Of a DNA stretch of 32,000 nt, positions 4,144-30,408 are shown piece after piece. The notes below the pieces were generated by a model that saw only the letters and a list, made by a program, of their open reading frames with translations, was not told where the DNA came from and made no database searches. Both the position numbers and the translations under genes were made by a program. Each line of letters begins with the position of its first letter. Positions within the stretch are counted from its first letter, which is position 1. This stretch comes from Candidatus Heimdallarchaeota archaeon B3_Heim (GTDB lineage Archaea; Asgardarchaeota; Heimdallarchaeia; Hodarchaeales; Hodarchaeaceae): positions 1 to 32,000 of the forward strand of contig NJBF01000025.1 of NCBI GenBank assembly GCA_003144275.1. Direction: 5' to 3'.

Positions 4144-7100
4144 CTACATAAACTTGGTTTTTTTTCTTTTTAAGCCTATAATAAATATAGCTAATAACAC
4201 CATTAATTCAGGAATTGGAGAGGTTGTGGATTGAGTGGTTGTTGTTCCTGAGGAAGTATCAGAACTAAATGAAGTTGTAGACGGGATTGTAGTTTCTGAA
4301 ACATATTGTATTAAAATTGAAATCGTGTAATAGACAGAATTTCCACTTCCATCCTGAAATTCAACCCCAAGATTATAACTACCCACAGCCAAACTATCAA
4401 AATTTGCGTAAATAATTCCATTAGTCCAAGTTCCTGTCTCGATTATCTCATTGTTTAAGAATATAGAATAGGTTTCAGGATCATAATCAAAAACTACCCA
4501 ACCAATATCGACCGATGATCCATAAGGTAGTTGTATCTCATCATTTGAAACCCTTACTAATAATTGGATCTGATCAATCGCTGTTGTGTCTACCATATTT
4601 CCTCCACCAATTCTTTCAATACGGATCTTCGTAATTTGTTGCCCAAGAGTCATACTATTGATTAAATAGTAATGCCAACTATGATAGACATCCTCTATCA
4701 AGTGTACAGAGAAACTACTATCAGAATAATATACGGTGACTTGAATTTGATGCTGGGAATACAATCGAGCCCAAAATGTTAAACTCGTGTATTCATCAAC
4801 GAGGATTACTTCGTTTAACGTTTGCTCAATCCAGGCATCTGAGTATATTTGAGAATTCTGGTCATAGGTGATTAATGCAACACCAAAATTGCCAGAATAT
4901 ACATAGAAGGGATTAGTTTGAATACTAGCTCTATCGGTTCCTGTTCCAGTTGTCCACCCTGACAGATCACCCATCTCAAACCCTCCGTTTTCTAGTACAG
5001 TATAAACAGGTGAAACATGTGGAGCTTGGGTATCAACAACATCAATAAAAACGGTATCTGAAGTGGATTGGCCATACTCATTGAAAAAGGAAATAGTATA
5101 ATTATATGTACCGATATCAAGGTTATCAATATTGATAATCAAGCTCTCTCCACTTACCCATATATTTGTAGCAATTAATACTTGGTTCCTTCTTAAGGCA
5201 TAATAATCAGGAGATGAGGCGTAGATTATCCAAGAAATTGTAATTCCTGTTTCTCCTAGTTCATATGTAAAATCAGATGGGCTACTAGCGATAACAGGTT
5301 TATCATCCGATGTAACTGTTACAATAAACTCAAGGATGGCCAAATTACTGCTTGTATCGTTTAATTCAATTGTATACCAATAAGTACCAATTGTTAATCC
5401 GTCTATATTCAGAACGTTTTGATTTAAATCTTCCCACATTCCAGAAATGAGTTCTGTTCCATCCTGATATATCACATAAGAATCTGGGGCATGATCTGTA
5501 GCTATCCAAGAAATTATATTGCCAGAGCTGCCAGATAAATACGTGATATTCGTGGAACTAAAGCCGTAATTTAAACTAATATCATCTATTGCAGTTGTTG
5601 AGGCTGTATTTCCGCCTCCTATTCTTTCAAACCGTACAGTATCTATTAATTTCCCGAGAATAAGGTCAGAGACAGTATATTTATACCATGTTGAATGAAA
5701 ATCAGGAAAATCGTGAACGGAGGTAGTAAGATCGGAATAGGTGACAGTAACACGGATAATATGATTACTATAGAATTTTCCCCAGAAAGTAATATTTGTC
5801 AGTTCATCCACTAAAATTTGTCTTAAAACGTTTTGTTCAATCCATGCATCGGAATAGACCCATGTATCCATATTATATGTAATTAATGCAAGGCCATAAC
5901 TGCCAGAATGTACATAGAAGGGATTAGTTTGAATGCTAGCTCTATCAGTTCCTGTGCCAGTTGTCCAAGCCGTTAAATCGCCATATTCAAAGTTTCCGTT
6001 GATAAGAGCTTCATCTGTTCCATGGAGAAATACAGGAGGGGTTATATCTTCAACTGTTACCCACACCTCTGATGAAACAACATTTAATAATGTATCTCGG
6101 AAGATGATGGTGAAATTGTAAGTTCCTATTGTTAACCCATCGACATCAATAAGTACTGCTACATCGCTTAACCAAGAGTTTGATTTTATTATAGAATTAT
6201 TTTGGTAAATATCATATGTCGCTGGATTCGTATCAACAGCAGTCCAGTTTAATATATTCCCTGTAGATCCAAGTTCATATGTGAAATTATCTGGAAATTC
6301 CAATAAAACTGGTTCCCCAGCTTGAACAGATACAAATACTTCATCCCTGGCCAAGTTACCTTGTTGATCTAAAAGGATAATTGTAAAGTTATAAACTCCA
6401 ATGGCCAGTCCATCTACGGATATAATTACTGGGATTCCACTTAACCATGAATCATTAGCAATTTTCGCATCATTTCTATAAATTGTGAAGTTCGCAGTGT
6501 CGTTGTCAACAACTGTCCATTTGAGCTCGTGTCCTATTGTATTTTCATCATACACCAAGTCCTGAGGAGAATTTGTAATTGTGGGGAAAGGTGAGAGAAG
6601 AGAAATTGTAAAGTTATCAACATAAAACGCAGGGGGTGATTGAGTTGAGTAATGGTTCCTAATTGTTACAGAATCAATGTAATAACCTTGAGGATCAGGA
6701 AATTCACCATTGGCAATGAAATCTATCAATAAATTGCGATAGAGGTGATTCCATGAATTTACAGTCCATTTTGTGTCAAAAAGATAATACGTATAGGTGG
6801 AAGTGTTTGAACCAGGCCAACCTGGGAAATATCCAGCCCATTTGTATACAATGTGTACGCTAGGTGCCGTTTCATTAAACGATTTCAATTGAATTCGAAT
6901 AAAAGCTCCAGCCCATTCAGTTCCATACCAACCTAAACCCGTGGAATAGATCCAAGAACTTAAAAGGGGGGAATCGACGATAGAGACATCTGTTGTTAGA
7001 TTCTGAATGAGAGTCCGATCAGGTACTGTAGGCCATGTAGTAGTAGCGAAGTATGCAGAATATGTCCCATCCTGCACGAGTGTATTCGATTGAATTACAG

Positions 7101-9411
7101 AACCCTCTGTTACAACCCAATCATCACCAAAAGGTGTTTCAAATGACGGATTTTGTATAAATGAAGTCAAAGGCGGAAGAGAGTTCACGTAGACCCAAAC
7201 TTCATCAGATACATGGTTATTTTCGTCATCAGTAAGGGTTATTGTAAAATTATAGCTCCCAGTAGAAAGACCAGTTATATCTAATATGATAGGTGTTCCA
7301 GAAGCCCAAACTCCATTATCAATGTTGGAACTATTTCGAAATATCGAATAGGTATTTGGATTGTTATCAGACACTATCCAGGTCAGATTTTTGTCAATGG
7401 CTGCAAAATTATAACTTAAATCGTCAGGTGTTTGGGTGAAAACTGGTTCAGGGTCAGGAGGAGTAGCGTGAGAATAAGGATAAAGTAAATCAACATTATC
7501 AGCGTAAAATGATCCTGGACTATAATTTGAGAAGTGATACACTATCGATATTTTAACAATGGAGTAATCTTCAGGAGTTTTTTCTGGAAATCCCGAACTA
7601 AAATCATTAAATATATCACGGAAGAGAAGATTCCACTGATTCGCATTCCAAGTGGAGGAAACATTAATATTGTACGGCCCCTCCAGTAAATTTCCTGCCC
7701 AGAAGTATTTGATTGCGAATGCATCACTCCCATTACTATTTGAAAACCTTATATTGATTGCATCATATGGCCATGTACTTCCAGTATTTCCCACAAAAGT
7801 AGGGTAAATGTACGCCCATAAATAAGTGTTTGGTACAACAGGGTAATAATCCAGTTGAAATTCTTGATTTAATCTCCTGTAGTATGGAGAGGCTAACTCT
7901 TCCTCCATAAATAAACTCTTATTTCCATCTAAGACTAAATTTTGGGGAGTGCTAATTACCTGTGGTGTTTGATCCCCTGTTTCTACGTCCCAATTTAATA
8001 GACCATCTTCAAAACCAGGATTTTTAATTAATGACCTATAAAGTCCAATATTATCGATATAAAACCATCCTGGTTGATTGTTCGAATAATGGGTTACAAA
8101 TTCTACATGGTATAGTTCATAATTATAGAACGCTTCTTCCATTCCAAATAATTCCATAAAATCTGACCGTAAATTTCTGTAAAGAAGATTCCATTCTTGG
8201 GCTTTCCAATTGGGGTATAAATCATGAAGAATAATAAATCCTGTATAGGTTGTATTTGCTCGAATGCCGAATGAACCTGCCCATGTATAATGGACTGATT
8301 TAGTGATTGTGCCGTTAGTAAACAGAACATTTAATCCAGCATAATTCCATTGTCCTGCTAAGTACCCCACTTTTTCAGGGTAAATCCATGTGTTCAGATA
8401 AATTGATTCAGTTAAAGATAAGTTAGACAATGGTTGTTGACTAATAAAACTATTGTAAGGATGGGGATCACTAGTTGTGGCCCTATCTACAAAGCAAGTA
8501 TATCCCGAGCCAGTAGTATGAGAACTTGATACCTGAGCTTTGTAGCTATCCCATCCATCTAGATTTCCTTCATCAAATAAGCCGTTTTCTAAGCAATTTG
8601 TATCTACAGGAGCGGGTAGGCTTGTAATAGAAAACGAATCAACATAAAATGGTGGAGGAGAGGCTGTTGAATAGTGATTTCGAATTCGAATTAAAGAAAG
8701 ATAATAATCATGAGGATCTGGGAACAAGGGACTTGCCGTAAAATCAGCTGTTAAATTTCGGTAAAGGTTATTCCAGGAATTCGCGGCCCAATCTTGCGGA
8801 AAGGAATAATGAGTGTAAGATGTCGTATTAGTCCTTCCAGTAAAATACCCAGCCCATCGATAATCGAGATATTTCATTTCACCAGAGCTAGATGATTTAA
8901 AACCAACCCTAATAAACGCTCCAGCCCATTCAGTTCCATACTGGCCAACACCGGTTGGATAAATCCATGTGTTTATGATTGGAGAGCAAGAAAGAGGTAC
9001 ACCAGATTTGAGGACTTGTTCAAGTTCATTATTACCAGCAAAGGGAGCATTAGGGACATATAACGAGAAGCTTCCTTCTTTTATGATTGATGAGGATCTG
9101 GACATAGAGCCTTCAATTAACTGCCAATCTTGGTCTAACGGCAATTCAAAGGAAGGGTTGCCTAAAATAGAAGATATCCCTTCATCATTGGGATTAATAG
9201 ACAATTTTGCAGGTTCTGGATCCACTGGATTACTTCTTAATCCATTCAATAGATTTTCTTTTTCATGACTTAAAGTAAAAGCACCATAATCCTCGGACAT
9301 CAGGTTAAAACTATTAATTAGAAGAATGCATATTACAATCAGAAAAAAAAATTTCCTTGCATTTTTAATTTTTATTCCTTGAACTTTACTTTTGTTTTTC
9401 AACAAACCCAC
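4144..9411 (-). CDS. Large cell-surface glycoprotein: six NxxFE-initiated carbohydrate-binding-module-like jelly-roll domains, about six Ig-like repeats, Thr/Ser linker, C-terminal TM anchor with basic tail
   Basis: Repeats starting NPSFE/NGLFD/NPGFE/NPSFE/NGNFE/NGGFE and ending (FY)xDx-type strands. Ig repeats W...D.NP..Y.I..N......W.SG..I...DGL.IG.YN.TI. C-terminus TTSSGTTTTQSTT-like linker then SPIPELMVLLAIFIIGLKRKK. Confidence 0.85.
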   Translation of the reverse strand: MGLLKNKSKVQGIKIKNARKFFFLIVICILLINSFNLMSEDYGAFTLSHEKENLLNGLRSNPVDPEPAKLSINPNDEGISSILGNPSFELPLDQDWQLIEGSMSRSSSIIKEGSFSLYVPNAPFAGNNELEQVLKSGVPLSCSPIINTWIYPTGVGQYGTEWAGAFIRVGFKSSSSGEMKYLDYRWAGYFTGRTNTTSYTHYSFPQDWAANSWNNLYRNLTADFTASPLFPDPHDYYLSLIRIRNHYSTASPPPFYVDSFSITSLPAPVDTNCLENGLFDEGNLDGWDSYKAQVSSSHTTGSGYTCFVDRATTSDPHPYNSFISQQPLSNLSLTESIYLNTWIYPEKVGYLAGQWNYAGLNVLFTNGTITKSVHYTWAGSFGIRANTTYTGFIILHDLYPNWKAQEWNLLYRNLRSDFMELFGMEEAFYNYELYHVEFVTHYSNNQPGWFYIDNIGLYRSLIKNPGFEDGLLNWDVETGDQTPQVISTPQNLVLDGNKSLFMEEELASPYYRRLNQEFQLDYYPVVPNTYLWAYIYPTFVGNTGSTWPYDAINIRFSNSNGSDAFAIKYFWAGNLLEGPYNINVSSTWNANQWNLLFRDIFNDFSSGFPEKTPEDYSIVKISIVYHFSNYSPGSFYADNVDLLYPYSHATPPDPEPVFTQTPDDLSYNFAAIDKNLTWIVSDNNPNTYSIFRNSSNIDNGVWASGTPIILDITGLSTGSYNFTITLTDDENNHVSDEVWVYVNSLPPLTSFIQNPSFETPFGDDWVVTEGSVIQSNTLVQDGTYSAYFATTTWPTVPDRTLIQNLTTDVSIVDSPLLSSWIYSTGLGWYGTEWAGAFIRIQLKSFNETAPSVHIVYKWAGYFPGWPGSNTSTYTYYLFDTKWTVNSWNHLYRNLLIDFIANGEFPDPQGYYIDSVTIRNHYSTQSPPAFYVDNFTISLLSPFPTITNSPQDLVYDENTIGHELKWTVVDNDTANFTIYRNDAKIANDSWLSGIPVIISVDGLAIGVYNFTIILLDQQGNLARDEVFVSVQAGEPVLLEFPDNFTYELGSTGNILNWTAVDTNPATYDIYQNNSIIKSNSWLSDVAVLIDVDGLTIGTYNFTIIFRDTLLNVVSSEVWVTVEDITPPVFLHGTDEALINGNFEYGDLTAWTTGTGTDRASIQTNPFYVHSGSYGLALITYNMDTWVYSDAWIEQNVLRQILVDELTNITFWGKFYSNHIIRVTVTYSDLTTSVHDFPDFHSTWYKYTVSDLILGKLIDTVRFERIGGGNTASTTAIDDISLNYGFSSTNITYLSGSSGNIISWIATDHAPDSYVIYQDGTELISGMWEDLNQNVLNIDGLTIGTYWYTIELNDTSSNLAILEFIVTVTSDDKPVIASSPSDFTYELGETGITISWIIYASSPDYYALRRNQVLIATNIWVSGESLIINIDNLDIGTYNYTISFFNEYGQSTSDTVFIDVVDTQAPHVSPVYTVLENGGFEMGDLSGWTTGTGTDRASIQTNPFYVYSGNFGVALITYDQNSQIYSDAWIEQTLNEVILVDEYTSLTFWARLYSQHQIQVTVYYSDSSFSVHLIEDVYHSWHYYLINSMTLGQQITKIRIERIGGGNMVDTTAIDQIQLLVRVSNDEIQLPYGSSVDIGWVVFDYDPETYSIFLNNEIIETGTWTNGIIYANFDSLAVGSYNLGVEFQDGSGNSVYYTISILIQYVSETTIPSTTSFSSDTSSGTTTTQSTTSPIPELMVLLAIFIIGLKRKKTKFM
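4891..4956. repeat. Copy 1 of a 66-bp near-identical intragenic repeat (copy 2 at 5902-5967)
   Basis: 62/66 identity by manual comparison; encodes WTTGTGTDRASIQTNPFYV(Y/H)SG in two CBM-like domains. Confidence 0.9.
5902..5967. repeat. Copy 2 of the 66-bp intragenic repeat
   Basis: gccagaatgtacatagaagggattagtttgaatgctagctctatcagttcctgtgccagttgtcca versus 4891-4956. Confidence 0.9.
6905..6928. repeat. 24-bp exact intragenic repeat (second copy at 8918-8941)
   Basis: gctccagcccattcagttccatac occurs at both sites; part of the YGTEWAGAFIR motif in CBM-like domains 1 and 4. Confidence 0.85.
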
Positions 9412-10038: not shown

Positions 10039-13000
10039 ATGAGATATAATACAACTCACCTGAGAAATTTTGCCTTATTAATAATTCTATTGTTGAATAT
10101 TTTTGCTCTTATGATCAATTTTAGTAGTGTACAAGGCGAGGAGACCGAAGGTTTCACAGCTGACATATTACGAGGATTGGGAGTTTCATTAGATGACGAA
10201 GATAATCAAGTATCACCTGTTCCGCGATTAACATCGGAATCTCTTTCTAATTTTCCTGATCGGAACCAACTGAATACTCTTCCAATCACAACATCGAAAA
10301 TTGTAAACAGTTTTTCTCTTCCCTCGTGGGGAGGTTTAGGATTCGGATTTAGAAAAAATATTACTGTTGATTCTTCTCAAGTCGCAACAGATTTGACTAA
10401 CTATTCCCTTCTAATTGACATGGGCGATGCATTTGATATATTTGGAGTCACACAATCATCGGGTAACGATATTATCTTTACAGATTCTTCAGGAACGATC
10501 TTAGATCACGAACTTGAACTATTTGATGCAGAAACATCACATTTAGTTGCGTGGATACGAATACCAAACCTTTCGAGTAGTAGCGATACTCAAGTATCTA
10601 TGTATTATGGAAATGAAACCATCATTAGCCAACAGAATCCATCAGGTGTGTGGGATAATGGCTACATGGCTGTTTATCACCTAAACGATGACCCAGCTTC
10701 CACGATCTATGACAGTACTTCTAATAATAATGATGGTTCATCATTTGGGACAGTTACTCAGGAAGAGGGGCCCATGGGGAATGCCTATTATTTTGATCAG
10801 GATGGTGGAATTGATGATTATCTCAGAATCCCACAAAGCTCAAGTCTCAATCTCACTGGAAATCAAATGACATTGGAGGGATGGGTATATCTGCAATTTA
10901 CACCTGTTCCATATGATTCAATGATCTTTGACAAGGCAGGTGATTTCTATAATACTGATGGTTGGATGATGGGAGTTGATGGGGACTATATTGCGGGTGG
11001 GGTTGGCTACCCAACACAAATGAATCAACGAATTAATACTCAGAACAATCAAGCAGTCCGAGTAGATAATGGTGCTATCTATCCTGGAAGATGGACCTAT
11101 CTTTCAGTAATTTATGACGGTACAACATCATCTTATACTGGTTATATTGATGCATCAAACGTTTATACCAATTCAGGGGTAAGTGGTGATATAAGAAATG
11201 TGAATATGGATCTCTTTATTGGAAAAAGAGATGAGGCTGCAAATCGCGTATTCCATGGAAGCATGGATGAACTCAGAATTTCCGATGTAGCACGATCGAC
11301 AGGTTATATAACCACTTGTTATAATAATTATAATGATCCAGAGGAATTTTACAGTATTTCATCCCAAGAACCTGGAATATCTAATTATGAAAAACAAAGA
11401 ACGATTATCATTGATTCTTCCATAGTTTCAGGAAGCAGTGATTTAAGTAACTTTCCCCTTTTACTTGACTTATACCTTGAAAATGCACCCCCTAATATCA
11501 TATTTACGGATGGTAATTCAGGTCAATTATTGGAACACGAAATTGAATTATTTGATGCTAATTATAATTCTAGTCATGATCACCTTGTTGTGTGGATGAA
11601 AATTCCCACTCTCTCAAGTAGTTTTGATTCAGAAATCATCATGTATACAGATTCTATACTTCCACAAGTCTATTCAAATCCAGATGTATGGACTGATTAT
11701 ACTGGAGTCTGGCATTTAGGAGAGACTGAATTTAATGATGAAGACTCAAATAATAATGCACATGAAGATTCAACAAACCAGAATAATGATGGTGATCAAC
11801 ATGGGAATTATAAGAATCAAAGCATCATTGGGTATGGACAAGATTTCGATGGAATAAACGATTATATCGATATTGGGGATCCTGATTCATTAGAACTCGT
11901 TGGAGATTCATATTTTACATTTACTGGATGGTTTTATCGTGAATCTACAACCACGGATGATTATATTATTGATAAATGGGATTCCGTTCACGGGGGTTCG
12001 GAAGGAACAGGGTATTATCTCTGGATCGATCAATCTGATGGAAAATTGAAGTTTCAGTCAAACGATGATGATGACGATGGTTTTATTCTTCAATCTACTT
12101 CTAATTTCAATACTTTGCCTATTGGTTGGTATCATTATGCTATTACCTTTCATACTTCTCCTGCTGTAGAGACTACGCCAAATGTAATGCAAATGTACAT
12201 TAATGGGGTGAATGACAATGCTGTTGCCAGTTTATGGGGAATAGGAGCTCCAGGGTGGACAGGTTATGATGATTTTAATCCCCTTACTAATACTGAAACT
12301 TTCCAAATATCTAACACCAATAGTCCTTTTGATGGATTCTTAGATGAAATACGAATTACAGAGCAAATACTAACGGAAGATTGGATACGAACTGAGGTAA
12401 GAAACCAGAATAATCTGTCAGCTTACCTTACGGTTGGACCCGAAATTGAAAGTCAGAAACTATGGCATGATGCTGCATTCAATAGACGGAAAGACTTGAA
12501 AATAGATTCCGCAGGGTTTGTAGGCACTAGTAATGAACAGAATATTATTCTTCGACCTGGAGCCCGAGGAACTGATTATAATCAGTGGGGAGTGGTTGGT
12601 GCCCCTTATCAGCATGAAGCTGTAGATGAAGTCATTACCGATGATTGGACTACTTATATTACTCTTAGCACTAATAGTTCAACTCCTTACGGAGAAATGT
12701 TTTATGCAGTTGGATTACCTGCAACCACTCCAAGTGGTACCATTACCAGTGTACGGGTTTATAGCAATGCTCGTACGTCTGGTACAGTAACTTCTTATGG
12801 TTTTCAACATTGGCTAAGGGCCTCTGGAAATACTGACACCATTGGAGGACGTTCTCTTAGTGGCTCCTTCATCGTGGATTATGATGAAGCCACAACAAAT
12901 CCTTTCACTCTTCAACCATGGCAATGGGAGGATTTGGAGGATTTAGAATTCGGAGTATGGGGATATGTAAGAGAAGGAGCAAGTCAAGGATATCTTCGTG

Positions 13001-16000
13001 TTACTCAAGTGTGGGTTGTTGTCACTTTTGAACCTGATTCTTCTTACTTGAAAAATATCCCCATTACTGTAGACATTTATGATTCTGATCTTAAAACGGA
13101 TGTACAGGCGGATGGCGATGATATTCGCTTCTATGATGAATATGGTAGAAAGTTAGCTCATGAAATTACGGAATTTGAGCAAAATTACAATTCAAGTCAC
13201 GCTCGTCTAACTGCATGGGTTGAAATTCCCACTCTCTCAACGGGAGGGGATTCTTACATTTCTATGTATTACGGGAACACATCACTAGGAAACCAAGAAC
13301 AAATAGAAGAAACATGGGAGGAATATCTTGCTGTATATCACTTAGAAGAGACCCCCCCTAGTCTTTTGAGAGATAGTACTGCAAGTAATCTAGATCTTAC
13401 ATCATTAGGATCTATGACTTCAGATGATCGTGTTACCGGTCAAGTCGGCTATTCAATTGATTTTGATGGAAGTAATGATCAACTTTATACTACTCAGGCT
13501 GTAACTCTGGGTAGTTTTACTTTATCTTCATGGATTAACTTTGATTCAGGTGCTGGCTGGAATACGATTTTAAATTTCGATCGTGGTACCATTGATTGGC
13601 GCCAATTTTCTATTAATGATTGGAATCCTCGTTTCGATGGTGCTGGTTATTCCTATGCCTTTGGAGGGCCTTATAGTACTTTTACTTGGTATTACGTTGT
13701 TTTTACGTATGATGCTAATTCTACTGAATTCAAAGTGTATGTCGATGGTGCCCAATCTGGCTCAACTAGATATCTATCAATAGATACTATTACTGATGAT
13801 TTTCAACTAGGTGCATGGGGAACAACTGATTGGTGGAATGGAAAGCTAGATGAAGTGAGAATTGCTGCAGATACAAGGTCTCTAGCGTGGATTAAAGCAG
13901 AATACGCTAATCAATATGACCCCAATACATTCATATCCATTGGTCAGGAAATCGAATTAGCTCCTCCTATTATCAATTCATTTGGAGTCGACGATCCAGG
14001 TAATGGAAATCCAACTCTTTGGGCTAATGTTACAGATCATGATACTTCTGTTGCATCTGTCTCACTTAGAGTGAATACTTCCGACGTTATAATGACCAAA
14101 AATGCTACAGGGATTTGGACTTATCCGCTTCCTTCAGTTGTTTATGGTGATTATTATACTTATCAGATAACGAATGCTTCAGATATAAATGGAAATTATT
14201 TGAAATCGTCATCCACTATCCAAAATAATACGTTTGATTATGATTCTGTTGTTCCTACGATTGAAGATGCACCAAAATATTATCAAGGTGTCGGTGGTAC
14301 TTGGGATTATCAAAATAATACTTTTAAGGCAAACATTAGTGATTCTTGGGGTGAAATTCACACAGTATTACTTGAAGTTACCACATATTCTCTCAGTGCG
14401 GTTATGGTAGAATATAGTGACTTTGGTAACATCCTTGGATTTATCAATAATTCTCTTGATTTACCCAATGGAGGAATGAACTTTCGGATAATTGTAAATG
14501 ACTCTGGTGGGAATGAAATTATTTCCTCATTAGATTCGGCTTCAGTGTTTTATAATCATCCTCCAATAGCTTCTAACCTTATGATAAATACAGCTCCTTA
14601 TTATAGTAATAATTCCTTAATTCTCGTGTATACTTACTGGGACGAGGATTCACATCTCGAAGATGGGACAGAGATACACTGGTATCGAAATGAGATATTA
14701 CAAGGCTATCCAAATGAAGTTCCGAGTACTGCTCTGGTAAGGGGAGAGACTTGGTGGGTGTCTGTTAGACCTCATGATGGGATTGAATTTGGTGATATAA
14801 TCTATTCATCCAATATAACGATTGAGAATACGGTTCCTCTTGTTCAAAATATCGAATTAGAAGTTGTTTCCGATATTGAAAAAGGACAATCATTAGAATT
14901 ATCATATACATGGATAGATGCTGATTCAGGAGATATTGATCACTCACTTGTTCAGTGGTACAGAAATATTAGTTCTGGTTATGTATTAATGGATGCTTTT
15001 ACAAATAAAACACAAGTACCCTCTAACGCTACTCAAAGGGGTGAGAAATGGAAAGTCAATGTAACCGCTAGCGATAATTTTGGAATTGGTAATTCCATAT
15101 TATCAATAGAAACTATTATTCCAAACACTGTCCCTTATTTAGAGGTAACCATTAACAATAATACTGTTCCTGCAACTGTGAATGTTGATCAGGACCTTAT
15201 TGCTAATTATACCTATTTTGATGCTGATAATGATTCAATTGTTATAGTAGAGATTCAATGGTATAAATATAATTGGTCAGATTATACGTGGAGTGCTAAT
15301 TTTTCCAATACATTGATTATTCAAAGCGGAAATACATCTGATGTGCCACCTGAAGATGGTTGGCGTGTTGAAATACGAATTAGTGATGGATTAAATTATA
15401 GTAGTTGGTACTCGTCCCCCACGATTAGAATTGGAGCTCCTCCAAACAATCCTCCCAGTGTAGTTAATTTGAATCTTGATTCCAGTTTACATATTGCTGG
15501 TGGCTTTTTATATGTCAACTACACATTTATAGATGAGAACGGAGATAATGAATCCGATTCACAGTTTAGATGGTACCGCAACGGAGTTCATCAATTGAAT
15601 CTAATATCCCGTAACCTTACTACTGCTACACTAGTTAAGGGGGACTCATGGTATGCAGAGGTTAGATCAAAAGATGGTTCCGACTGGGGAGAATGGAATC
15701 AAAGTTCTGTAATCATTATTGGTAATACTGCTCCTAAGGTTGAATTCGGCGAGATTATATCATCTGACACACCTGCTTACACAACAAGCACCTTAACTGC
15801 AAACTTTGGAAGTACAGATGTTGATAATAATCCAGTGAGTGATTTTATTATCATTTGGAAAATAGGGGGTAAATTAGGGACAGAAGTTCCTAACCTAGAG
15901 AATAAAACTATAGTCACAGCAAATTATACTTCAAAAGGCGAATGGTGGTCATATGGAATTAGTGTTTTTGATGGAAATGAATGGTCTCCTTTCGTATATC

Positions 16001-19000
16001 CAGAAGATTTTGGAGAAACCCCACTGATAATTGCTAATACAAAACCTTCTATAGTAAACGTGATTCTAACTGGCGGTAGAAATACCTCAGATCCTATTTA
16101 TCTCACCTATAGTTTTTTTGATTCTGATAACGATTCTGAAGGCTTACCGTTGATTCAATGGTTCAAACCAGGACTAATAAATGATCCAGATGCAAATAAT
16201 AATGAAACTCTTGGTACAGAGTTTTTTATTGCTGGAAATACTATTACTTTACAGATTAAAGCATTCGATGGGGAGGAGTATAGTGATTGGACACTTTCAA
16301 ACCTTTTCCCAAGCGGTTATGTTATAATCGGAAGTTCAACACCAACAATCGTAGGTGAACCCCTAATTGTAGGGCCAAATCAAAGCTTAAACTACAAAGC
16401 TGATTCACCCCTTATAGTGAATTATACTGCAAGTGATCCTGATCATGGTGAAAACACTGATTATGACATTGAATTAGATTCAGATGGTTACGTAATAGGT
16501 GCATTATATGAATGGTACAGGAATGATGTACTAGTTTCCGCGATTACAGGGCACACTGTCCCTGTTGATTACTTGAAAAAAGGAGATACTTGGTTGGTCA
16601 GAGTTAAACCAAGGGATAAAAGATCTACATATGGTACGTGGGAAAACTCCTCCACGATAACAATACAGAACGGTAATCCAGAGGTAACTGGGATTTGGTT
16701 TGAAACAACCTTAGTACCTACTGATATCGATATTCGTGTACAGTTTTCGTATTCAGATATTGATGGTGATTCAATCAATTTAGAAAATACTTCAATTCTC
16801 TGGTTCAAGAATGGAATCCTAATCTCAAGTGCAGTCAATCGGACGGTTTTGTCCAGTCAGCTGATTGGTGATGATTACTTTGTCGTTGTCTCTCTCAACA
16901 GTATCAACTACCAGAAAAATGACAATATTTCAGTTATTATAAATCCCTTTGATGGGACTGACTGGACGTTAGATAATGCTTCCACGATCACAATAAAAAT
17001 TCAGAATTCAATACCGACGGTATCTAATCCAAGTCTCTTAGCCCATAATCGAAATGGTACAATTATCTATACAACAGATAGAATAAATCTTACTTGGGTT
17101 TATTCTGATGTTGATGGTGACAATGAAAGCACACCCATTATTATTTGGGAGAGAAATGATGTTGCTCTACCTCTTTACGCTAACTCATTATTCATTCCAT
17201 CGACCGCCACGACAAAGGATGAAAAATGGGATGCAATTATTCGAGTGCATGATGGTACGAATTATAGCATTGAGTTATCAATAACTATTTTCATAACAAA
17301 CAGTATTCCTGTATTAGTAGACGTTGTCTTATGGAATAATAACGATCTATCAAATAATAGTTATTCCGATGGTAGTATCTCAATATCCTCCTATGATTTT
17401 ATCGATGCAGATTTTGATTCTGTTGACTCCAGCGCTAGTTTTATTCAATGGTATCTTAATGGTGTTTACGTTTCATTGTATGATAACCAAACAAGCATTT
17501 CAAGTAGTGAATTAATGAAAGGAGATTATTGGTACGCAGTGGTTCAAATTTTGGATTTAGGTGGAGTTATATGGTCAAATAATTATACTTCTCAGATTAT
17601 TTATGTTATTAACAAAGCTCCTGAAGTGACATCATTGATTTTAGTAGAGGAACCAGGTTATCTTATCGAAGATGAGAACATAACCATTGTTTTGACAATT
17701 ACTGACCCTGATTTCAATGATACAGATGCTTCTATTATAGAATGGATGATTAATGGAACCTTACAACCCCAATATACTAATCAACGAGAAATATCGTTTA
17801 TTGAGACAAATCCAGGTGATAACTGGACAATTATTATCACACCCTCAGATGGAATAGACAATGGAGCCATATTCACAAAATGGGTTATCATTGAAAGTCG
17901 GCCTCACATTCAAAATCTAACTGCAATAATTGAACAGGATCTTGATGGTCACTTTACATTCGGCTTGCAGGTGCTTGATGCCCGAAATCAAATCACTTCG
18001 GTAAAGTATGAGCTATTTCTCAATGGTACCGAGTCAGATATTGTCGATATTCTAAACTCTGCAAACACCACAGATTTTTGGATACTTGAATATTTTCTAT
18101 CAGATCCTGCTTATTATAACACAGAAGCAATGATAGAAATCAGGGCGACTTCTGATCTCGGTATTACCTCGATTAGAACTTTTTACTTCTCGATCATTGA
18201 TGGAGTAGCTCCTCGCGTATCAGGTGTAGGATTAGGAGCATGGTTTGTTAAGAATAGTAATGATCCAACTCAATTATCTTTCTTTGCTGATATTGAAGAG
18301 TACGGTGCAGGGGTAGCAAATGTTACTTTATATTATTACTATAAACAGGTGGATGGTGGAGAAGGATCATCAATGTTACAAGATTTCACCCCTGTTCTCA
18401 TGATTTTCAACGCGTCTGATGCTAACACCCTTACATATGCAGTAACAGTTCCCTATCCTCAAGATGACAAAGATTATGAGGTCTTGTATTGGGTCACAAC
18501 TCAAGACTTGGCTGGTAATAGCAATCCTGGAGCATTCGATATTAGAGATTATCCTGATCGAATAAATAACGAACGAATTATACAACCGACAGGAGGACTA
18601 CCTCCAGAGTTATTACTCCTTGCTGGCCTCGCAGTTTTCCTGATTTTTGTTGGTTCAGTCGTATACGTCCGTTTCATCCGAAAACCAGAAATAATTGGTT
18701 TAGATAAACCATTAGTAATGAAAGGGGTTCCCGATGTAGACGATGATGAAATCATTGAGAATATTGATAGACATACACTCGGAATTGTTGTCAGTTTCTT
18801 CGATCAGTTACATGGGCCTATTCCTATCATCGTCATTCCGGAGATGTTAAAAGATAATTATAGTAAATTAGTAGCACTTTCTGATCGCTCGTTCAGTGGT
18901 ACTGAGTTTAGTGATAATTTCGCAGGCGAGGAGTTTTCTTCATATGATTTTGGACTTGGCGAACAACTAAGGATAAGTGTCATTAGTTACGGATTTGCTT

Positions 19001-24970: not shown

Positions 24971-27133
24971 TCACCTTTGAGGATTTAACAATATACGAGT
25001 ATCTACTGCTAGTACTCCTTGATTCTGTTCAAAAACTAAAACTGGGTTAATTTCGATATCAGATATATCTTTACATAGCTGAATGATTTTACTTAGCCGG
25101 AGGATGATGTCAATACATCCTCCAATATCTTTAGCTGCCTCTCCTCTTACTCCTAGTAGCAATGGATATGAACGTATTTGTTGGATCATTTCAATAGCAT
25201 CAGATCGTTTAACAGGAACTGCTCTAAATGCAACATCCTTTAAAACTTCTACATAGATCCCACCCAAACCAAACATAACCGTGGGCCCAAATGTATTATC
25301 AATCCTTGCTCCGATAATAGTTTCCATTGCTTCCTCCATATTGATCATTCTGACAATTTCCACTCCCTCAATTTTTGCATCAGGCTTATATTTTCGTGCT
25401 GAGGTGAGAATAGCTTCGTATGCATCTAGAAGTTCTTCTCGATTCTCTAAATTGAGTGCTACACCACCAGCATCCGATTTGTGGATAATATCCTTCGACA
25501 CAATTTTCATGACTACTGGATATCCAACTACTTCTTCTGCATAATGAATTACTTCTTCTAGATCTTTTGCTACATAACTCTTAGGCGTTGGAATTCCAGC
25601 TGCATCCATGACTCTCAAAGCTTCGGGAACAAGGAGAAACCGTCTATTCTCCTCCCTTACTTCATCAATAACTTCTTGTATGGAAGCAATGTTAATTTCT
25701 GGTTCATCAAATCCTGAAGCTTCGTCTTCAGTGTCAATTATATTGTGATAATGTTTATACAAGGCCCCTAAACAGCTTGCCGCTTCATAAACATCAGAAA
25801 AGATGGGAACACCCTTTGATTTTAATGTAAATAATCCTTTCTCAAATTCTCCTCCTCCAAAGAAAGAAAAAACAACCGGTTTATTTGGCTTATCATCTAA
25901 ATATTTCTTCTGTACTACTGCCGCTAATTGGTCAGCAGAAAATATGGCAGTTTCACAACCGAGGACAATCACAGAATGAATATCAGGGCTATCTAGGGCA
26001 GCTTGGAGAGCTTGTTCATAGATCTCACTGGTACCTTGTCCCGTAATGTCCACAGGATTTTTAGTAGAACCAAAAGAAGGTGTGACAGGAGTAAAAATCT
26101 TTTTTAACACATCACGATCATCATAAAGAGTTACACCATACAACTCACACGCGTCAGTGGCAAGGACTCCTATTCCACCTCCATTGGTCACAATGACTGC
26201 ATTCTCCCCAGTAGGAAGGTTTTTTTGGATAGCAAGGAATTTTGCCCAATTTAATGCCTCTTGGACACTTAGAGCACGGAGCGCACCTACTTGTCGTGCA
26301 ATTATATCAGTGAAGACATTATCAGCTCCAGCTAACGATCCAGTATGGGAAGCTGCTGCCATGGCACCACGTTTAGAACGGCCAGATTTGATGATAATAA
26401 CAGGTTTTATTTTCGTTGCAATTTCAAGGACATTAGTCAATCTGTCCCCATGTTTAATTCCCTCTATATATAACAGAATGACTTTGGTATTGTCATCTGT
26501 AATGAAATATTCAATCAAGTCCGATTCGTCAATATCACACTTATTACCGACAGATACAATAGCTGATAGACCGATTCCCTCAGTAGCAGTTTTACCGATC
26601 ATTGCTACGCCAAGAGCTCCTGACTGTGTAACTATTGCTACTGATCCATGTTCAATATGTTTATATCCAAATGTAGCATTCACAGGTGCTTTTGCAGAAA
26701 AAATTCCAAAGATATTTGGACCAAGAATTCGCATTCCATTCTTTCTGGCAAACTTGACTAATTCTTCTTCTTCCTCAATATTCCCAACTTCAGAGAACCC
26801 ACTTGTAATTATTGAGATGAACTTTGTTTTCTTTTTTGCACAACTTTGTAGTGTGTCAAAAACATATTTTGCTGGAACACATATCGTAGCGAGATCAATT
26901 TCATCATCTATTGCTTCTATTGAATCGTAAACTTTGCATCCGAGAATTTCTCCTCCCTTAGGATTCACTGGATAAATATTTCCTTGATACCCTGATGCTA
27001 CAATATTATCGACTACTTTATAGCCAATCTTATTTTGATTCGATGATGCACCAATTATTGCAATTGATTTCGGTTCAAATAAATGCTTTATATGAGGAGC
27101 GTTGATTTTTGGCATACGATACTTGTTCTCCAT
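24971..27133 (-). CDS. acdAB: Acetate-CoA ligase (ADP-forming), fused alpha-beta type
   Basis: PKSIAIIGAS, IYPVNPK, RILGPN, QSGALG, SVGNKCD, IKSGRS, AASHTGSLAG (phospho-His), TNGGGIG, NPVD; beta/ATP-grasp GYPVVMKIVS.DI.HKSDAGGV, FGPTVMFGLGG, EINP. Confidence 0.93.
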   Translation of the reverse strand: MENKYRMPKINAPHIKHLFEPKSIAIIGASSNQNKIGYKVVDNIVASGYQGNIYPVNPKGGEILGCKVYDSIEAIDDEIDLATICVPAKYVFDTLQSCAKKKTKFISIITSGFSEVGNIEEEEELVKFARKNGMRILGPNIFGIFSAKAPVNATFGYKHIEHGSVAIVTQSGALGVAMIGKTATEGIGLSAIVSVGNKCDIDESDLIEYFITDDNTKVILLYIEGIKHGDRLTNVLEIATKIKPVIIIKSGRSKRGAMAAASHTGSLAGADNVFTDIIARQVGALRALSVQEALNWAKFLAIQKNLPTGENAVIVTNGGGIGVLATDACELYGVTLYDDRDVLKKIFTPVTPSFGSTKNPVDITGQGTSEIYEQALQAALDSPDIHSVIVLGCETAIFSADQLAAVVQKKYLDDKPNKPVVFSFFGGGEFEKGLFTLKSKGVPIFSDVYEAASCLGALYKHYHNIIDTEDEASGFDEPEINIASIQEVIDEVREENRRFLLVPEALRVMDAAGIPTPKSYVAKDLEEVIHYAEEVVGYPVVMKIVSKDIIHKSDAGGVALNLENREELLDAYEAILTSARKYKPDAKIEGVEIVRMINMEEAMETIIGARIDNTFGPTVMFGLGGIYVEVLKDVAFRAVPVKRSDAIEMIQQIRSYPLLLGVRGEAAKDIGGCIDIILRLSKIIQLCKDISDIEINPVLVFEQNQGVLAVDTRILLNPQR

Positions 27134-27274
27134 AACCTACAGCAATTGGATCAAGAATTTTTTCATTCTATGTAAATATAAGCAGTTATAATTTGGTTTT
27201 GCTTCTTTTATAATATTAATTATCTTCTAGTAATATCCCTTAGACTAGTGAAAAAAGAAGTTCTACTATAAGTG

Positions 27275-29170
27275 TTAAAAAGTCATCCGTAGCTCGTAAA
27301 TCCCTTCAGTAAGTCGTTTATCTAGGTTAGGAAATAATTTTTCAAATAGAGCGAGCATACCTCTGTTTTCTAATAATACTTCGGCACTAAAGCCTAGTAA
27401 ACCTGCAGATTTAGCGAGATAAGTAAGAAATTTCATTAATTCGGTTCCCACACCTTTCCGATGATAATCATCTTTTACCACAAAAGCAGCTTCAGCTGTA
27501 TGGGAATGTTGATCGATTCCATATTGACCTACACCAACAATCTCCTGTGAAATGCCTTTAGATACGACAGCAAGGACTATCATCTCTATTGAAAAATCGA
27601 TGATACAAAAATCTTGAAGTCTTGAATGTGGTAAATCTTTTCTAACACTCATAAATCGACGATAAAGAGATTGATCAGACAAATCGTAGAAGAAATCCTT
27701 TAATAGTGGCTCATCACTAATTTTAACTGGACGAAGCATGATTTCAAGACCGTCTGTAGTAGTACGCCAAGTTTCCAAGTGTTCAGGATATTCTCCTTTT
27801 TTACCAGGGATAAATGCTTGATCTTGGTAAATTAAATTCTCTTTTTTTGCTTCCTTAATTAGGTGTGATTTGAAACGAGGATGAGCAATAGAAATTAATT
27901 GCATGGCACGTTCACGAATGTTTTTACCATGCAAATAACAAATACCAAATTCGGTGATCACGTAATGAATATCTCCTCGATTAAGGGTTACACCAGCCCC
28001 TTCAGTTAAAAATGGGACTATTCTTGAAGTTTCCCCATTATCCGCAGTGGACTGAATTGTGAGTATGGACTTACCCTTATTAGCAAGAATTGCTCCTCGC
28101 ATGAAATCAGCTTGGCCTCCAATACCTGAATAAAAAATTTTACCAATGGATTCAGAAGAAGCCTGTCCTGTTAAATCTATTTGCAGTCCACTGTTAATTG
28201 CAGTCATATTATCATGTTGGGCAATTGTTAACGGATCATTAGTATACTCGATTCGACGCAGTTCAATGGAGGGATTGTCATGAATAAAATCGTATGTCGA
28301 TTGGGAACCCATGCAAAAGGATGCTACTGATTTTCCACGATTGATAGATTTTTTTGTATTATCTATGACACCTAATTTCATTAACTGAACGAGACCATCG
28401 CTTACGAGTTCAGTATGAACACCTAGATGCTTTTTATCTTTTAAATTCGCCATCACAGCATTCGGTATACTCCCGTAACCAACTTGTATCGTATCTCCAT
28501 CTTGAATTAAACGAGAGACATATTGGCCAATTTTATTTGCCACATCGTCACTTGTAGGTTCCTGCTTGTACTCCAAAATAGACTCATCATAAGGTAGAAT
28601 ATAGTCAATATCCTTTACATGTAAAAATCCATCTCCATGGACACGGGGGACATTTTTATTCATCTGGGCAATGACAATACCAGCATTCTCGATCGCAGCT
28701 TTGACAATATCGACAGAAACACCCAAACTTACATAACCGTGATCATCAGGTGGAGTAACTTGGATCAGAGCGACATCTATTGGTACAAGACCGCTGTAAA
28801 ATATACTGGGTGTTTTTGAAAGAAAAATTGGCGTATAATCAGAAAGGCCACTATTAACAGCCTCCCGAGTAGAATTTGCAACAAAAAATGAGTTGTGTCT
28901 AAAGTTTATTTGATAAGCAGCATCTGTATACGGCGTTACTCCCAAGTTATACCAAGAGAGAACTTCCGTATCAAAGAAAGCTTTTGGATTTTTCTCTAAA
29001 TACTGAGCGAGTGATTTTATCAAGAATTGGGGCTCCCCGCACCCCGTATGAACAAAGATTCTGTCGCCTCTGTGAATATTCTGGAAAATTCTTGTTGGGG
29101 TCACAAATTTTGACGGATATTGCTCGATCAGTGTCGAATAGATAGGTTTTTTTTGGTTTCCGGAAACCAT
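27275..29170 (-). CDS. Acetyl-CoA hydrolase/4-hydroxybutyrate CoA-transferase family protein fused to a C-terminal GNAT acetyltransferase (ORF track start TTG 29176)
   Basis: HTGCGEP, DVALIQVTPPD..GY.SLG, HTELVSDG (catalytic Glu), QIDLTGQ, SGIGGQADF, DIHYVITEFG; GNAT region LRPVKISD...EAAFVVKDDYHRKGVGT...VLLENRGM. Confidence 0.9.
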   Translation of the reverse strand: MVSGNQKKPIYSTLIEQYPSKFVTPTRIFQNIHRGDRIFVHTGCGEPQFLIKSLAQYLEKNPKAFFDTEVLSWYNLGVTPYTDAAYQINFRHNSFFVANSTREAVNSGLSDYTPIFLSKTPSIFYSGLVPIDVALIQVTPPDDHGYVSLGVSVDIVKAAIENAGIVIAQMNKNVPRVHGDGFLHVKDIDYILPYDESILEYKQEPTSDDVANKIGQYVSRLIQDGDTIQVGYGSIPNAVMANLKDKKHLGVHTELVSDGLVQLMKLGVIDNTKKSINRGKSVASFCMGSQSTYDFIHDNPSIELRRIEYTNDPLTIAQHDNMTAINSGLQIDLTGQASSESIGKIFYSGIGGQADFMRGAILANKGKSILTIQSTADNGETSRIVPFLTEGAGVTLNRGDIHYVITEFGICYLHGKNIRERAMQLISIAHPRFKSHLIKEAKKENLIYQDQAFIPGKKGEYPEHLETWRTTTDGLEIMLRPVKISDEPLLKDFFYDLSDQSLYRRFMSVRKDLPHSRLQDFCIIDFSIEMIVLAVVSKGISQEIVGVGQYGIDQHSHTAEAAFVVKDDYHRKGVGTELMKFLTYLAKSAGLLGFSAEVLLENRGMLALFEKLFPNLDKRLTEGIYELRMTF

Positions 29171-29310
29171 ATACAATTATCCACCGATATATTAAATTAT
29201 ATAGTAATTCAAAATCATATATTTATGGATAAACGAGAATAAGAAAATAGATAAAGGTTGTGCTTTACATTTCAACCATTTAAAATACACAAACTGGTAA
29301 ATGATCAGAT

Positions 29311-30408
29311 CTAATGTGGTTGCATCTCTCCACCACAGAACATGCAGTTAGACATATTTGTTTCTTTCATAGTGGAGTAGCATTCTGGACAAACACTACG
29401 AAAACAGGTAAGACATTGATAATGGGGAGCGGAAATTGAAATCTCTCCCTCATGGAGATAACATCGAATTTTATCTGATCCTAATATTAAATAATCATCA
29501 GAAGCTGTATCATAGGTTCCAGACGTATCCAAAAACCCTTGAATTAGTTGTTGTTCCACCAAATTTCTCAGAATCATATTCACAAGCGGAATTTCTAGTT
29601 TATTAACCCGAGCAATTCGAGTCAAAGGTATCTGTTTTTTTCCTTCTATATCATGAATCATTGCAATGGTGTCTAAAACAGCCTTCTTATGTTTATTTAT
29701 CTCCTTTTCTTGTTTTCTGAAGTCAAGAAATGTACGAGTGTTATTTTTAATATCGGAGAATGACCAACGACGTTTATTAAAAGCTTTAATGTCGTTAATG
29801 ATCGTACTTGAAACTGTCTTAACTCCTTTGCTAGAAAGATTTGTTTTTTGGGCTTGGTAGTAGTCTCCTAATGATGAAACAGCACTTTTTCGGTTAACGA
29901 ATGATTTTACATCTTCTTTTTTAAAAATACGCGGAACTGGAATTAAATCGCCTTTACAATAGGGACATGTATCCGTTTGTACACTCTGATAACAAGAACT
30001 ACAAATAAATCGCAAACAGGTCTCACATTGAAAGTGGAGATCAAAAACAGAGTGTTCAGTTTGATCTATCTGACAATGGTAAGTATCCTCTCTTAGGACG
30101 AGAATTTGTTCGCTAGTGACGGGGTCTTTCTCAATGATACCATCAATCAGTCGTTGAGCCGTAAATTCTTGAATAATAAAAACTATATCATTTTCTGATA
30201 GCTTGGTCTCCTTAGCGACTTCTGCAATCGCAATTCGTCCATCATGTAATTTACTGAGTCGTGAAATCGTAGCAAAGGTTCGTTTAATAGGATGAGAGGA
30301 GATTTTGTACTCTTTTTCGTAAGCCTGAAAGTGATTTACCTCAGAGTTTACAATTCGTGACACTGAAGCTTTTATTCGATCGGAAAAGCTTTGATTGGAT
30401 GGATTCAT
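29311..30408 (-). CDS. Tandem (PCI-like wHTH + RING-like Zn finger) x2 protein
   Basis: IAIAEVAKETKLSE...QRLIDG and IPLTRIARVNKLEI...QQLIQG wHTH units, each followed by C-x2-(D/H)-x12-C-x2-C-x4-C-x2-C-x(8/11)-C-x2-C. Confidence 0.7.
   Translation of the reverse strand: MNPSNQSFSDRIKASVSRIVNSEVNHFQAYEKEYKISSHPIKRTFATISRLSKLHDGRIAIAEVAKETKLSENDIVFIIQEFTAQRLIDGIIEKDPVTSEQILVLREDTYHCQIDQTEHSVFDLHFQCETCLRFICSSCYQSVQTDTCPYCKGDLIPVPRIFKKEDVKSFVNRKSAVSSLGDYYQAQKTNLSSKGVKTVSSTIINDIKAFNKRRWSFSDIKNNTRTFLDFRKQEKEINKHKKAVLDTIAMIHDIEGKKQIPLTRIARVNKLEIPLVNMILRNLVEQQLIQGFLDTSGTYDTASDDYLILGSDKIRCYLHEGEISISAPHYQCLTCFRSVCPECYSTMKETNMSNCMFCGGEMQPH

Follow-up and report, generated by a model that had tools for sequence, protein, structure and literature searches.

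A giant surface protein of a Heimdall-group archaeon with a folliculin-like longin tail, encoded beside Rag-family GTPase genes

Could an archaeon carry a folliculin-type regulator of small GTPases on the inner end of a cell-surface protein? This question is raised by one large gene, P0001, in the first 32,000 nucleotides of contig NJBF01000025.1 of Candidatus Heimdallarchaeota archaeon B3_Heim (GenBank assembly GCA_003144275.1), a stretch that we refer to here as the window. The host is a Heimdall-group Asgard archaeon of the order Hodarchaeales. Folliculin-FNIP, GATOR1 and C9orf72-SMCR8 are longin GTPase-activating proteins (GAPs) that control Rag or Arf GTPases at the lysosome and have been linked to mTORC1 signalling, Birt-Hogg-Dube syndrome, epilepsy, and amyotrophic lateral sclerosis/frontotemporal dementia. 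Asgard Rag-like GTPases and longin and roadblock proteins are known (PMC10933270), and a set of 15 Asgard longins of the FLCN/SMCR8 type, carrying a GP motif and an arginine finger, was described in 2025; which GTPase is the client of these GAP-type longins, ArfR or Rag, is explicitly an open question in that work (PMC12290439). Here we report that P0001 encodes a giant membrane protein with a cytoplasmic longin tail of this class, and that its relatives repeatedly lie beside Rag genes. We consider it probable that P0001 is a membrane-anchored folliculin-like regulator of the neighbouring Rag GTPases, probably a GAP, fused to a fast-evolving surface domain.

P0001 occupies positions 10039-19266 (+ strand) as a single, uninterrupted open reading frame (ORF) of 3,075 amino acids, which includes the two peptides quoted in the initial annotation, GIVVSFFDQLHGPIPIIVIP and YGFALDKPEARGGKENLTLNIL. 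A Kyte-Doolittle scan of the protein showed only a signal-peptide-like hydrophobic segment at the N-terminus (residues ~8-30, 10060-10128, +; hydropathy peak 2.47) and one strong transmembrane segment (residues 2857-2879, 18607-18675, +; peak 2.67), the latter followed by RFIRK as expected from the positive-inside rule; a weaker peak at residues 2413-2431 falls within a beta-rich repeat. Among the N-x-S/T sequons, 68 of 70 are in the ectodomain, ahead of the transmembrane helix, and the protein has a single cysteine. Because the signal-peptide-like N-terminus, the lone transmembrane helix, the RFIRK sequence and the position of nearly all sequons before the helix agree, we conclude that P0001 is a type I membrane protein, with ~2,850 amino acids outside and ~195 inside the cell. 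The transmembrane helix had previously been placed at residues 2858-2877 with a cytoplasmic tail behind it, and both assignments were correct.

The tail (residues 2885-3075, 18691-19263, +) was modelled with AlphaFold2 from an alignment of 69 tail sequences (A1), which also served for the conservation counts given below. The model (predicted local distance difference test [pLDDT] 92.8, predicted TM-score [pTM] 0.88) shows two juxtamembrane helices, a longin core (beta-beta-alpha-beta-beta-beta-alpha-alpha) containing the beta-beta-alpha-beta-beta-beta-alpha order of the longin fold, and a long C-terminal helix. In structure comparisons the tail scored 14.3 with a Lokiarchaeota longin (8yqg), 12.5 with FLCN in the active GAP complex (8dhb_J; root-mean-square deviation [rmsd] 2.7 A over 135 residues), 12.3 with Lst4, 11.8 and 11.6 with FLCN in 6nzd and 6ulg, 11.6-9.8 with C9orf72-SMCR8 and 11.3-10.3 with NPRL2 in GATOR1/SEAC; DENND1 reached 8.1, and the TRAPP, AP sigma, Ykt6 and Sec22 longins 7-8. 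The Foldseek matches listed from Swiss-Prot were all to SMCR8, C9orf72, LST7, NPRL2, DENND6, AVL9 and LST4, and the ESM Atlas returned Asgard small-GTPase-longin fusions (TM-score 0.69) and a Heimdall cluster in which 23% of the members carry PF11704 (TM-score 0.65). That Pfam family, Folliculin, was matched by 27 of the 69 tails (best E 1.9e-4, mostly sub-threshold) and every other family by at most two, and we regard the tail as a distant relative of PF11704 by fold, not as a Pfam member. The folliculin/SMCR8-like cytoplasmic longin suggested by the initial annotation is borne out by these results, with Foldseek and the AlphaFold2 model placing the tail closest to FLCN/Lst4, C9orf72-SMCR8 and NPRL2.

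A GP motif before strand beta2 and an adjacent arginine finger are specific to GAP longins (FLCN, NPRL2, SMCR8 and C9orf72) and absent in other longins (PMC12290439). The tail has its GP motif at G2926-P2927 (18814-18819, +), which are residues 42-43 of the model and the first of strand 2. These are among its most conserved positions (G2926, 69/69; P2927, 67/69), together with P2929 (69/69), R2994 (67/69) and E2998 (67/69). R2994 (19018-19020, +), the candidate arginine finger, sits in the beta4-beta5 loop (P-E-A-R-G-G) between model strands 94-105 and 113-123, a stretch that is also covered by the Pfam Folliculin match. In SMCR8, Arg147 is the arginine finger acting on ARF1 (PMC8213707). As modelled, the tail is a longin of the FLCN/SMCR8/NPRL2 structural (GAP-type) class, with the GP motif of that class and a candidate for its arginine finger.

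This tail is a conserved domain in its own right. An exhaustive phmmer search with residues 2885-3075 against 1.84 billion representatives listed at least 150 cluster representatives, 123 of them at E<=1e-10, and in nearly all of those listed (200-5,809 amino acids long) the domain forms the extreme C-terminus, the exceptions being a few weak multi-stretch matches. A transmembrane-like segment precedes the domain in 95 of 103 homologues, at a median distance of 8 residues. The N-terminus of eight short homologues (~300 amino acids) is non-transmembrane and coiled-coil-like; P0045, P0061, P0072-P0074, P0077 and P0125 are soluble versions of ~280-390 amino acids in which such an N-terminus replaces the transmembrane segment. 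Tail-bearing members of the family reach 8,821-10,431 amino acids, and those that have been named carry no annotation beyond "DUF2341 domain-containing" or "hypothetical." The initial annotation had called for a survey of transmembrane-longin fusions, and more than 120 clusters proved to contain them, as did 22 of the 24 genomes of the order, at 1-11 copies each. Across 201 genomes of the phylum, strong matches were found in the host's own family (f1, 11/11), in families f3 (16/24) and f7 (3/4) and in one f21 genome, whereas the remaining 21 families gave none, although three of these were sampled 48, 45 and 14 times. Among the genomes sampled, the tail family is thus restricted almost entirely to the class containing Hodarchaeales.

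Directly downstream of the receptor gene lie two genes for Rag/Gtr GTPases and one for a second longin protein. The long GTPase, RagL (735 amino acids, 19295-21502, - strand), is convergent with the receptor gene and ends 28 nucleotides from its stop; it consists of an N-terminal G domain, a Pro-rich linker and a C-terminal region, matches Pfam Gtr1_RagA (PF04670; E 1.4e-30, 106.9 bits against a cut-off of 22), and has RagA/Gtr1 as its best PDB sequence matches (RagA, E 7e-19). The short one, RagS (21781-22716, +; 311 amino acids from a GTG), matches Gtr1_RagA at E 7.8e-37 (127.3 bits, cut-off 22) and Gtr1 in the PDB at E 1.5e-26, and has 167 homologues; because most of these are ~298-300 amino acids long, translation probably begins at the ATG at 21820 instead. 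The second longin protein, P0004 (339 amino acids, 22733-23752, -), has an N-terminal GAP-type-like longin, a gelsolin-like middle and a winged-helix C-terminus. It has no Pfam matches, and its AlphaFold2 model (30 homologues) reaches a pLDDT of 80.7, with an invariant G23-P24 before strand 2 of the longin and an invariant D89/R91 in the beta4-beta5 loop. Foldseek matched the longin part to FLCN-FNIP2, 8yqg, NPRL2, SMCR8, DENND11 and C9orf72, and also returned gelsolin; a search of PDB sequences with the P0004 profile gave winged-helix matches at the C-terminus and no FLCN, SMCR8 or NPRL2 chain. With two Rag G domains and a pair of GAP-type-like longins, the four-gene set matches the parts list of Rag heterodimers with FLCN-FNIP or NPRL2-NPRL3, and the connection to small GTPases is in this respect stronger than had been claimed from the tail alone.

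Some features of these neighbours stand apart. The C-terminal half of RagL (19295-20400, -) contains, after the Pro-rich linker, ~390 amino acids with two similar units of ~100 amino acids, for which no Pfam, PDB-sequence or usable Atlas relative was found (TM-score <= 0.31). This region sits where Rags normally have a roadblock domain and is kept in more than 100 homologues of 560-760 amino acids. P0004 has 47 homologues of ~340 amino acids, almost all Hodarchaeales-type, with paralogues on contigs C11, C87, C10 and C63 of the same genome, and P0004-like genes adjoin short Rag genes on C87 and in loci L011 and L014.

Proximity to Rag genes recurs across the class. Three independently assembled close relatives (L006-L008, labelled Hodarchaeota/Heimdallarchaeota) have the same gene order as the window, with continuous orthologous receptor ORFs of 3,091-3,114 amino acids. 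In L011, L012 and L014, receptors whose tails are 42-54% identical are flanked by a short and a long Rag and often by P0004-like genes, in sets that differ from the window in order and orientation; RagL orthologues flank the receptors in both groups of loci. The order's 24 genomes contain 93 tail-bearing frames, and for at least 18 of these a Rag G domain lies no more than 5 kb away, 13 frames having two; this lower bound is inflated by kinship and deflated by the 54 weaker Rag matches that it leaves out, and chance would give ~2% per frame by a rough estimate from ~9 Rag genes per ~4 Mb. Five f3/f7 genomes contain 12 strong tail matches, 9 of which are, by coordinates, directly beside a Rag-family G domain. 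Among such loci in these families, L018 and L019 contain, in order, a Ras-like small GTPase gene, one or two receptors (1,535-1,608 amino acids), a long Rag (490-651 amino acids) and a convergent Rag (407-409 amino acids), with the long Rag on the receptor strand after a gap of 38-47 bp, and in L020 a 180-amino-acid Rag-family G domain directly precedes a 1,560-amino-acid receptor. In some loci, receptor and Rag apparently form operons. In general, the GTPase genes of strain MK-D1 do not share operons with genes for longins or regulators (PMC10933270). The receptor-Rag association spans three families and several arrangements, and it is not universal.

Further loci bear on this linkage. Contig C87 of the same genome encodes, at 8747-42803 (-), a tandem operon of three tail-bearing giants (8,821, 1,537 and 993 amino acids) with no Rag gene within 28 kb; the same trio is retained in L013, L016 and L017 and in further genomes, with first members of up to 10,431 amino acids. 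At 80.7-88.8 kb, the same contig has a Rag/P0004-like/Rag cluster without a receptor. In one relative (G019, C101:14866-15126), a tail fragment broken by four stop codons is found ~1.6 kb away from a pair of Rag genes, one long and one short, and has the look of a receptor gene that decayed while the Rag locus was kept.

On the outside, the protein had been described as lectin/cadherin-like, and of this label only the lectin half is backed, by Pfam matches. The first ~1,300 residues contain three DUF2341 + Laminin_G_3 modules of the concanavalin A-like lectin/glucanase superfamily (residues ~97-440, ~494-829 and ~1004-1318; 10327-13992, +; limits from internal tblastn repeats), with both families above the Pfam cut-off (Laminin_G_3, E 2.9e-42, 144.8 bits, three stretches; DUF2341, E 1.9e-24, 86.4 bits). 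A carbohydrate-binding role is putative, a label taken from family membership. Past these modules, Pfam gives only a weak Big_13 match; the motif W-[YF]-[RK]-N ... GD-W ... DG marks about a dozen beta-rich, Ig/PKD-like repeats of ~95-100 amino acids (residues ~1,500-2,650), and a membrane-proximal region follows (together 13999-18588, +). No cadherin family was found by Pfam at E<=1, and the neighbours of the repeats in ESM feature space, which we treat as a lead only, carry Ig_2/Big_9/PKD domains; the cadherin-like reading was therefore rejected. NCBIfam had no match for P0001 or its tail.

Outside and inside evolve at different rates. In 150-amino-acid bins, the ectodomain shares 27-50% identity with those of L006 and L007, whereas the transmembrane helix and tail share 82-88%, and the genes flanking the receptor in L007 are 94-98% identical to those of the window. 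By these identities, the outside is diversifying or being replaced at speed and the inside is strongly constrained, a contrast to be expected if a recognition module exposed at the surface is coupled to a conserved effector within the cell.

We also predicted the complex of the tail (A1) with RagS (alignment A3, 46 sequences), GTP and Mg, alongside three controls. The median interaction prediction score from aligned errors (ipSAE) was 0.54 (runs of 0.54, 0.51 and 0.61) and the best control scored 0.00; the runs agreed in at least 95% of contacts, with a partner pLDDT of at least 87. In calibration, 58 of 80 solved complexes passed the mark, as did 2 of 110 mismatched pairs, and scores of 0.60 or less came from only 7 of the 80 solved complexes and from both mismatches that passed; the tail-RagS run departed from the calibration in using its own alignments and in carrying a ligand. 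The pass may come from likeness to the solved FLCN-RagC and GATOR1-RagA complexes rather than from binding. We take the prediction as weak support, which, given the prior from gene linkage, would raise the odds of an interaction only modestly.

From these observations we propose the following model. The large, rapidly diversifying ectodomain, with its concanavalin A-like lectin-fold modules and Ig-like repeats, would be joined through one transmembrane helix to a GAP-type longin, and the tail would keep a regulator of Rag-family GTPases at the membrane's inner face. There it would most likely engage the G domain of RagS and/or RagL and promote GTP hydrolysis, with R2994 as the arginine finger and the GP motif in a supporting role. 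By analogy with FLCN and FNIP, or NPRL2 and NPRL3, the tail may pair with the soluble P0004. The parts of this model differ in strength: that the tail binds a Rag at its G domain and uses R2994 to act as a GAP has close to an even chance, falling slightly on the doubtful side, and that events at the ectodomain modulate the tail, in an outside-in manner, we put forward more tentatively still.

Several observations weigh against this model. The tail-RagS score lies in the weak zone of the calibration, and no interface was returned with it. The P0001 tail matches PF11704 at 12.5 bits (E 0.13), under the gathering cut-off of 23.3 bits, and the tail-family profile found no FLCN, SMCR8 or NPRL2 chain by sequence in the PDB, giving chance-level matches only. 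Unlike FLCN and SMCR8, the tail contains no DENN family in Pfam, the protein ending ~65 residues past the longin core with helices only. The equivalence of R2994 to FLCN R164 is consistent with the data but putative at the level of residues, as is that to SMCR8 R147 and NPRL2 R78. A comparison of the tail and P0004 families with hhalign detected no homology (probability 0.3%). Going by the lower-bound linkage count, ~80% of family members have no Rag gene within 5-10 kb, among them the giants of contig C87 and the receptors of L010, L013 and L015-L017. Finally, the GAP activity of the tail is predicted from its fold and motifs.

It is on this last point that the best surviving alternative departs from the GAP model. 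The longin tail could be a non-catalytic anchor or scaffold, a Ragulator-like platform that brings a Rag-like dimer to the plasma membrane under the surface protein, through the dimer's C-terminal roadblock-type domain or its G domain. We consider this rather unlikely.

A further alternative is that the tail serves another small GTPase, Arf-related or Ras/Rab-like, or is a guanine nucleotide exchange factor (GEF), with the Rag neighbours as bystanders or acting downstream. SMCR8-C9orf72 acts on Arf as a GAP (PMC8213707), DENN/uDENN proteins are mostly Rab GEFs, and the choice between ArfR and Rag is left open for the Asgard longins (PMC12290439). The majority of family members without a Rag neighbour would also fit, as would the Ras-like GTPase gene (239-243 amino acids) that lies directly upstream of the receptor and on its strand in L018 (2595-3314) and L019 (1081-1812), whose product is a possible alternative or additional client of the tail. 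However, in every linked locus the best Pfam match of the neighbours is PF04670 (Gtr1_RagA), not Arf or Rab, no Arf-type gene was found in the window, and the GP motif points to a GAP over a GEF (PMC12290439). We consider a different client or a GEF activity distinctly improbable.

Information might also flow from the inside out. The giant could be an adhesin or cell-envelope protein whose longin tail serves to sort, place, cluster or turn over that same protein, for instance by linking it to the cytoskeleton or to machinery of the ESCRT (endosomal sorting complex required for transport) type through the Rag module. Giant, repeat-rich and fast-evolving ectodomains are typical of adhesins, family members of 8,821-10,431 amino acids and tandem arrays without Rag genes exist, and the candidate partner P0004 has a gelsolin-like domain. 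Such a role is, however, compatible with the tail as a Rag regulator and competes with the outside-in model only over the direction of information flow; as a replacement for that model, we give it little chance.

The idea that the join of tail and surface gene is a misassembly, or the tail a PAS/LOV/GAF-like sensor mistaken for a longin, is effectively refuted, although the source is a metagenome-assembled genome in 103 contigs and Foldseek does return LOV/PAS proteins (E ~1e-3): LOV aligns with a TM-score of ~0.3 and an rmsd of ~11 A, against 2.6-3 A for FLCN and Lst4. Four public read runs contain only small shares of the window (0.06-0.12 of its words) and assemble into short, low-depth contigs, none of which spans the whole stretch or gives long coverage of the junction; the single contig from an RNA library may be DNA. 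A 151-nucleotide contig from an independent run is nevertheless identical to the window and crosses 18630-18780, from inside the transmembrane helix into the tail. Because the same C-terminal arrangement occurs in many independent assemblies, and the three close relatives have continuous orthologous ORFs, misassembly of the junction is excluded for practical purposes. The chimera and the missing transmembrane helix raised as possible refutations by the initial annotation have thus not materialized, with the helix supported by hydropathy and conserved in the homologues.

Other genes of the window were also characterized. Divergent from the receptor gene, 4144-9411 (-) encodes a second giant surface protein of 1,755 amino acids, with weak CBM_4_9/ChitinaseA_N/PKD-like matches, a signal peptide and a C-terminal transmembrane anchor. 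Since this neighbour stops only seven residues past its anchor, the 190-amino-acid tail of the receptor is a specific addition. A metabolic block at 23918-29176 (-), syntenic in L006-L008, encodes an AAA_26/DRTGG protein, an ADP-forming acetyl-CoA synthetase-type protein (CoA_binding/Succ_CoA_lig/ATP-grasp_5) and an acetyl-CoA hydrolase/transferase fused to a GNAT domain. It is followed at 29311-30408 (-) by the gene for a 365-amino-acid protein with weak Prok-RING_2/RING-like zinc-finger and PCI/winged-helix-turn-helix-like matches, possibly ubiquitin-system-like.

The finding of a GAP-type longin that is repeatedly encoded beside Rag-family GTPases in the class containing Hodarchaeales offers a testable answer to the client question, and the locus and its relatives supply specific protein pairs that a GAP assay could use. 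It suggests that the Rag-longin axis is older than eukaryotes. Because a folliculin-type longin tail adjoins two Rag-type GTPase genes, archaea may already have had the Rag-longin switch of eukaryotes, connected to the cell surface. A bolder version, which we consider unlikely, is that Heimdall-group archaea own a complete proto Rag-folliculin/GATOR module made up of two Rag GTPases and two GAP-type longins, one of them the tail of the giants, that surface contact or a ligand on the hypervariable giants sets the Rag nucleotide state, and that the eukaryotic lysosomal nutrient switch descends from an archaeal plasma-membrane receptor pathway.

Two known systems resemble P0001 in its proposed function. 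Ragulator/LAMTOR anchors Rag GTPases to the membrane by means of lipidated p18 and roadblock domains, and plexins are receptors with a cytoplasmic GAP domain of RasGAP-like fold. The resemblance lies in tethering Rag regulation to a membrane and in joining an extracellular domain to a small-GTPase GAP, respectively, and is an analogy without homology. The longin of folliculin (FLCN-FNIP2, a RagC/D GAP; Lst7-Lst4 in yeast) is the closer counterpart, from which the tail differs by the absence of a DENN domain, an identity of ~14% and a Pfam score under the cut-off; FLCN is soluble and recruited to lysosomes, whereas here the longin, with a predicted GAP activity, is the C-terminal tail of a 3,075-amino-acid type I membrane protein. 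SMCR8-C9orf72 (an Arf GAP) and NPRL2-NPRL3 of GATOR1 (a RagA/B GAP) are large, soluble multidomain complexes; the tail and P0004, a putative pair, show no profile-level similarity to each other. Full-text literature searches combining Asgard and longin with transmembrane or Rag found no description of the membrane-receptor architecture or of the Rag linkage, and for prokaryotes the literature searched yielded no direct fusion of a transmembrane protein to a small-GTPase regulator of this class. The earlier view that the architecture had not been described therefore stands, within that literature, for the membrane fusion but not for Asgard FLCN/SMCR8-type longins as such, which are already published with no mention of a transmembrane fusion (PMC12290439). 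What was known is the catalytic-type longin in Asgard archaea; what is new is its place as the tail of a membrane receptor with conserved Rag neighbours, and the documented linkage of this receptor architecture to Rag genes.

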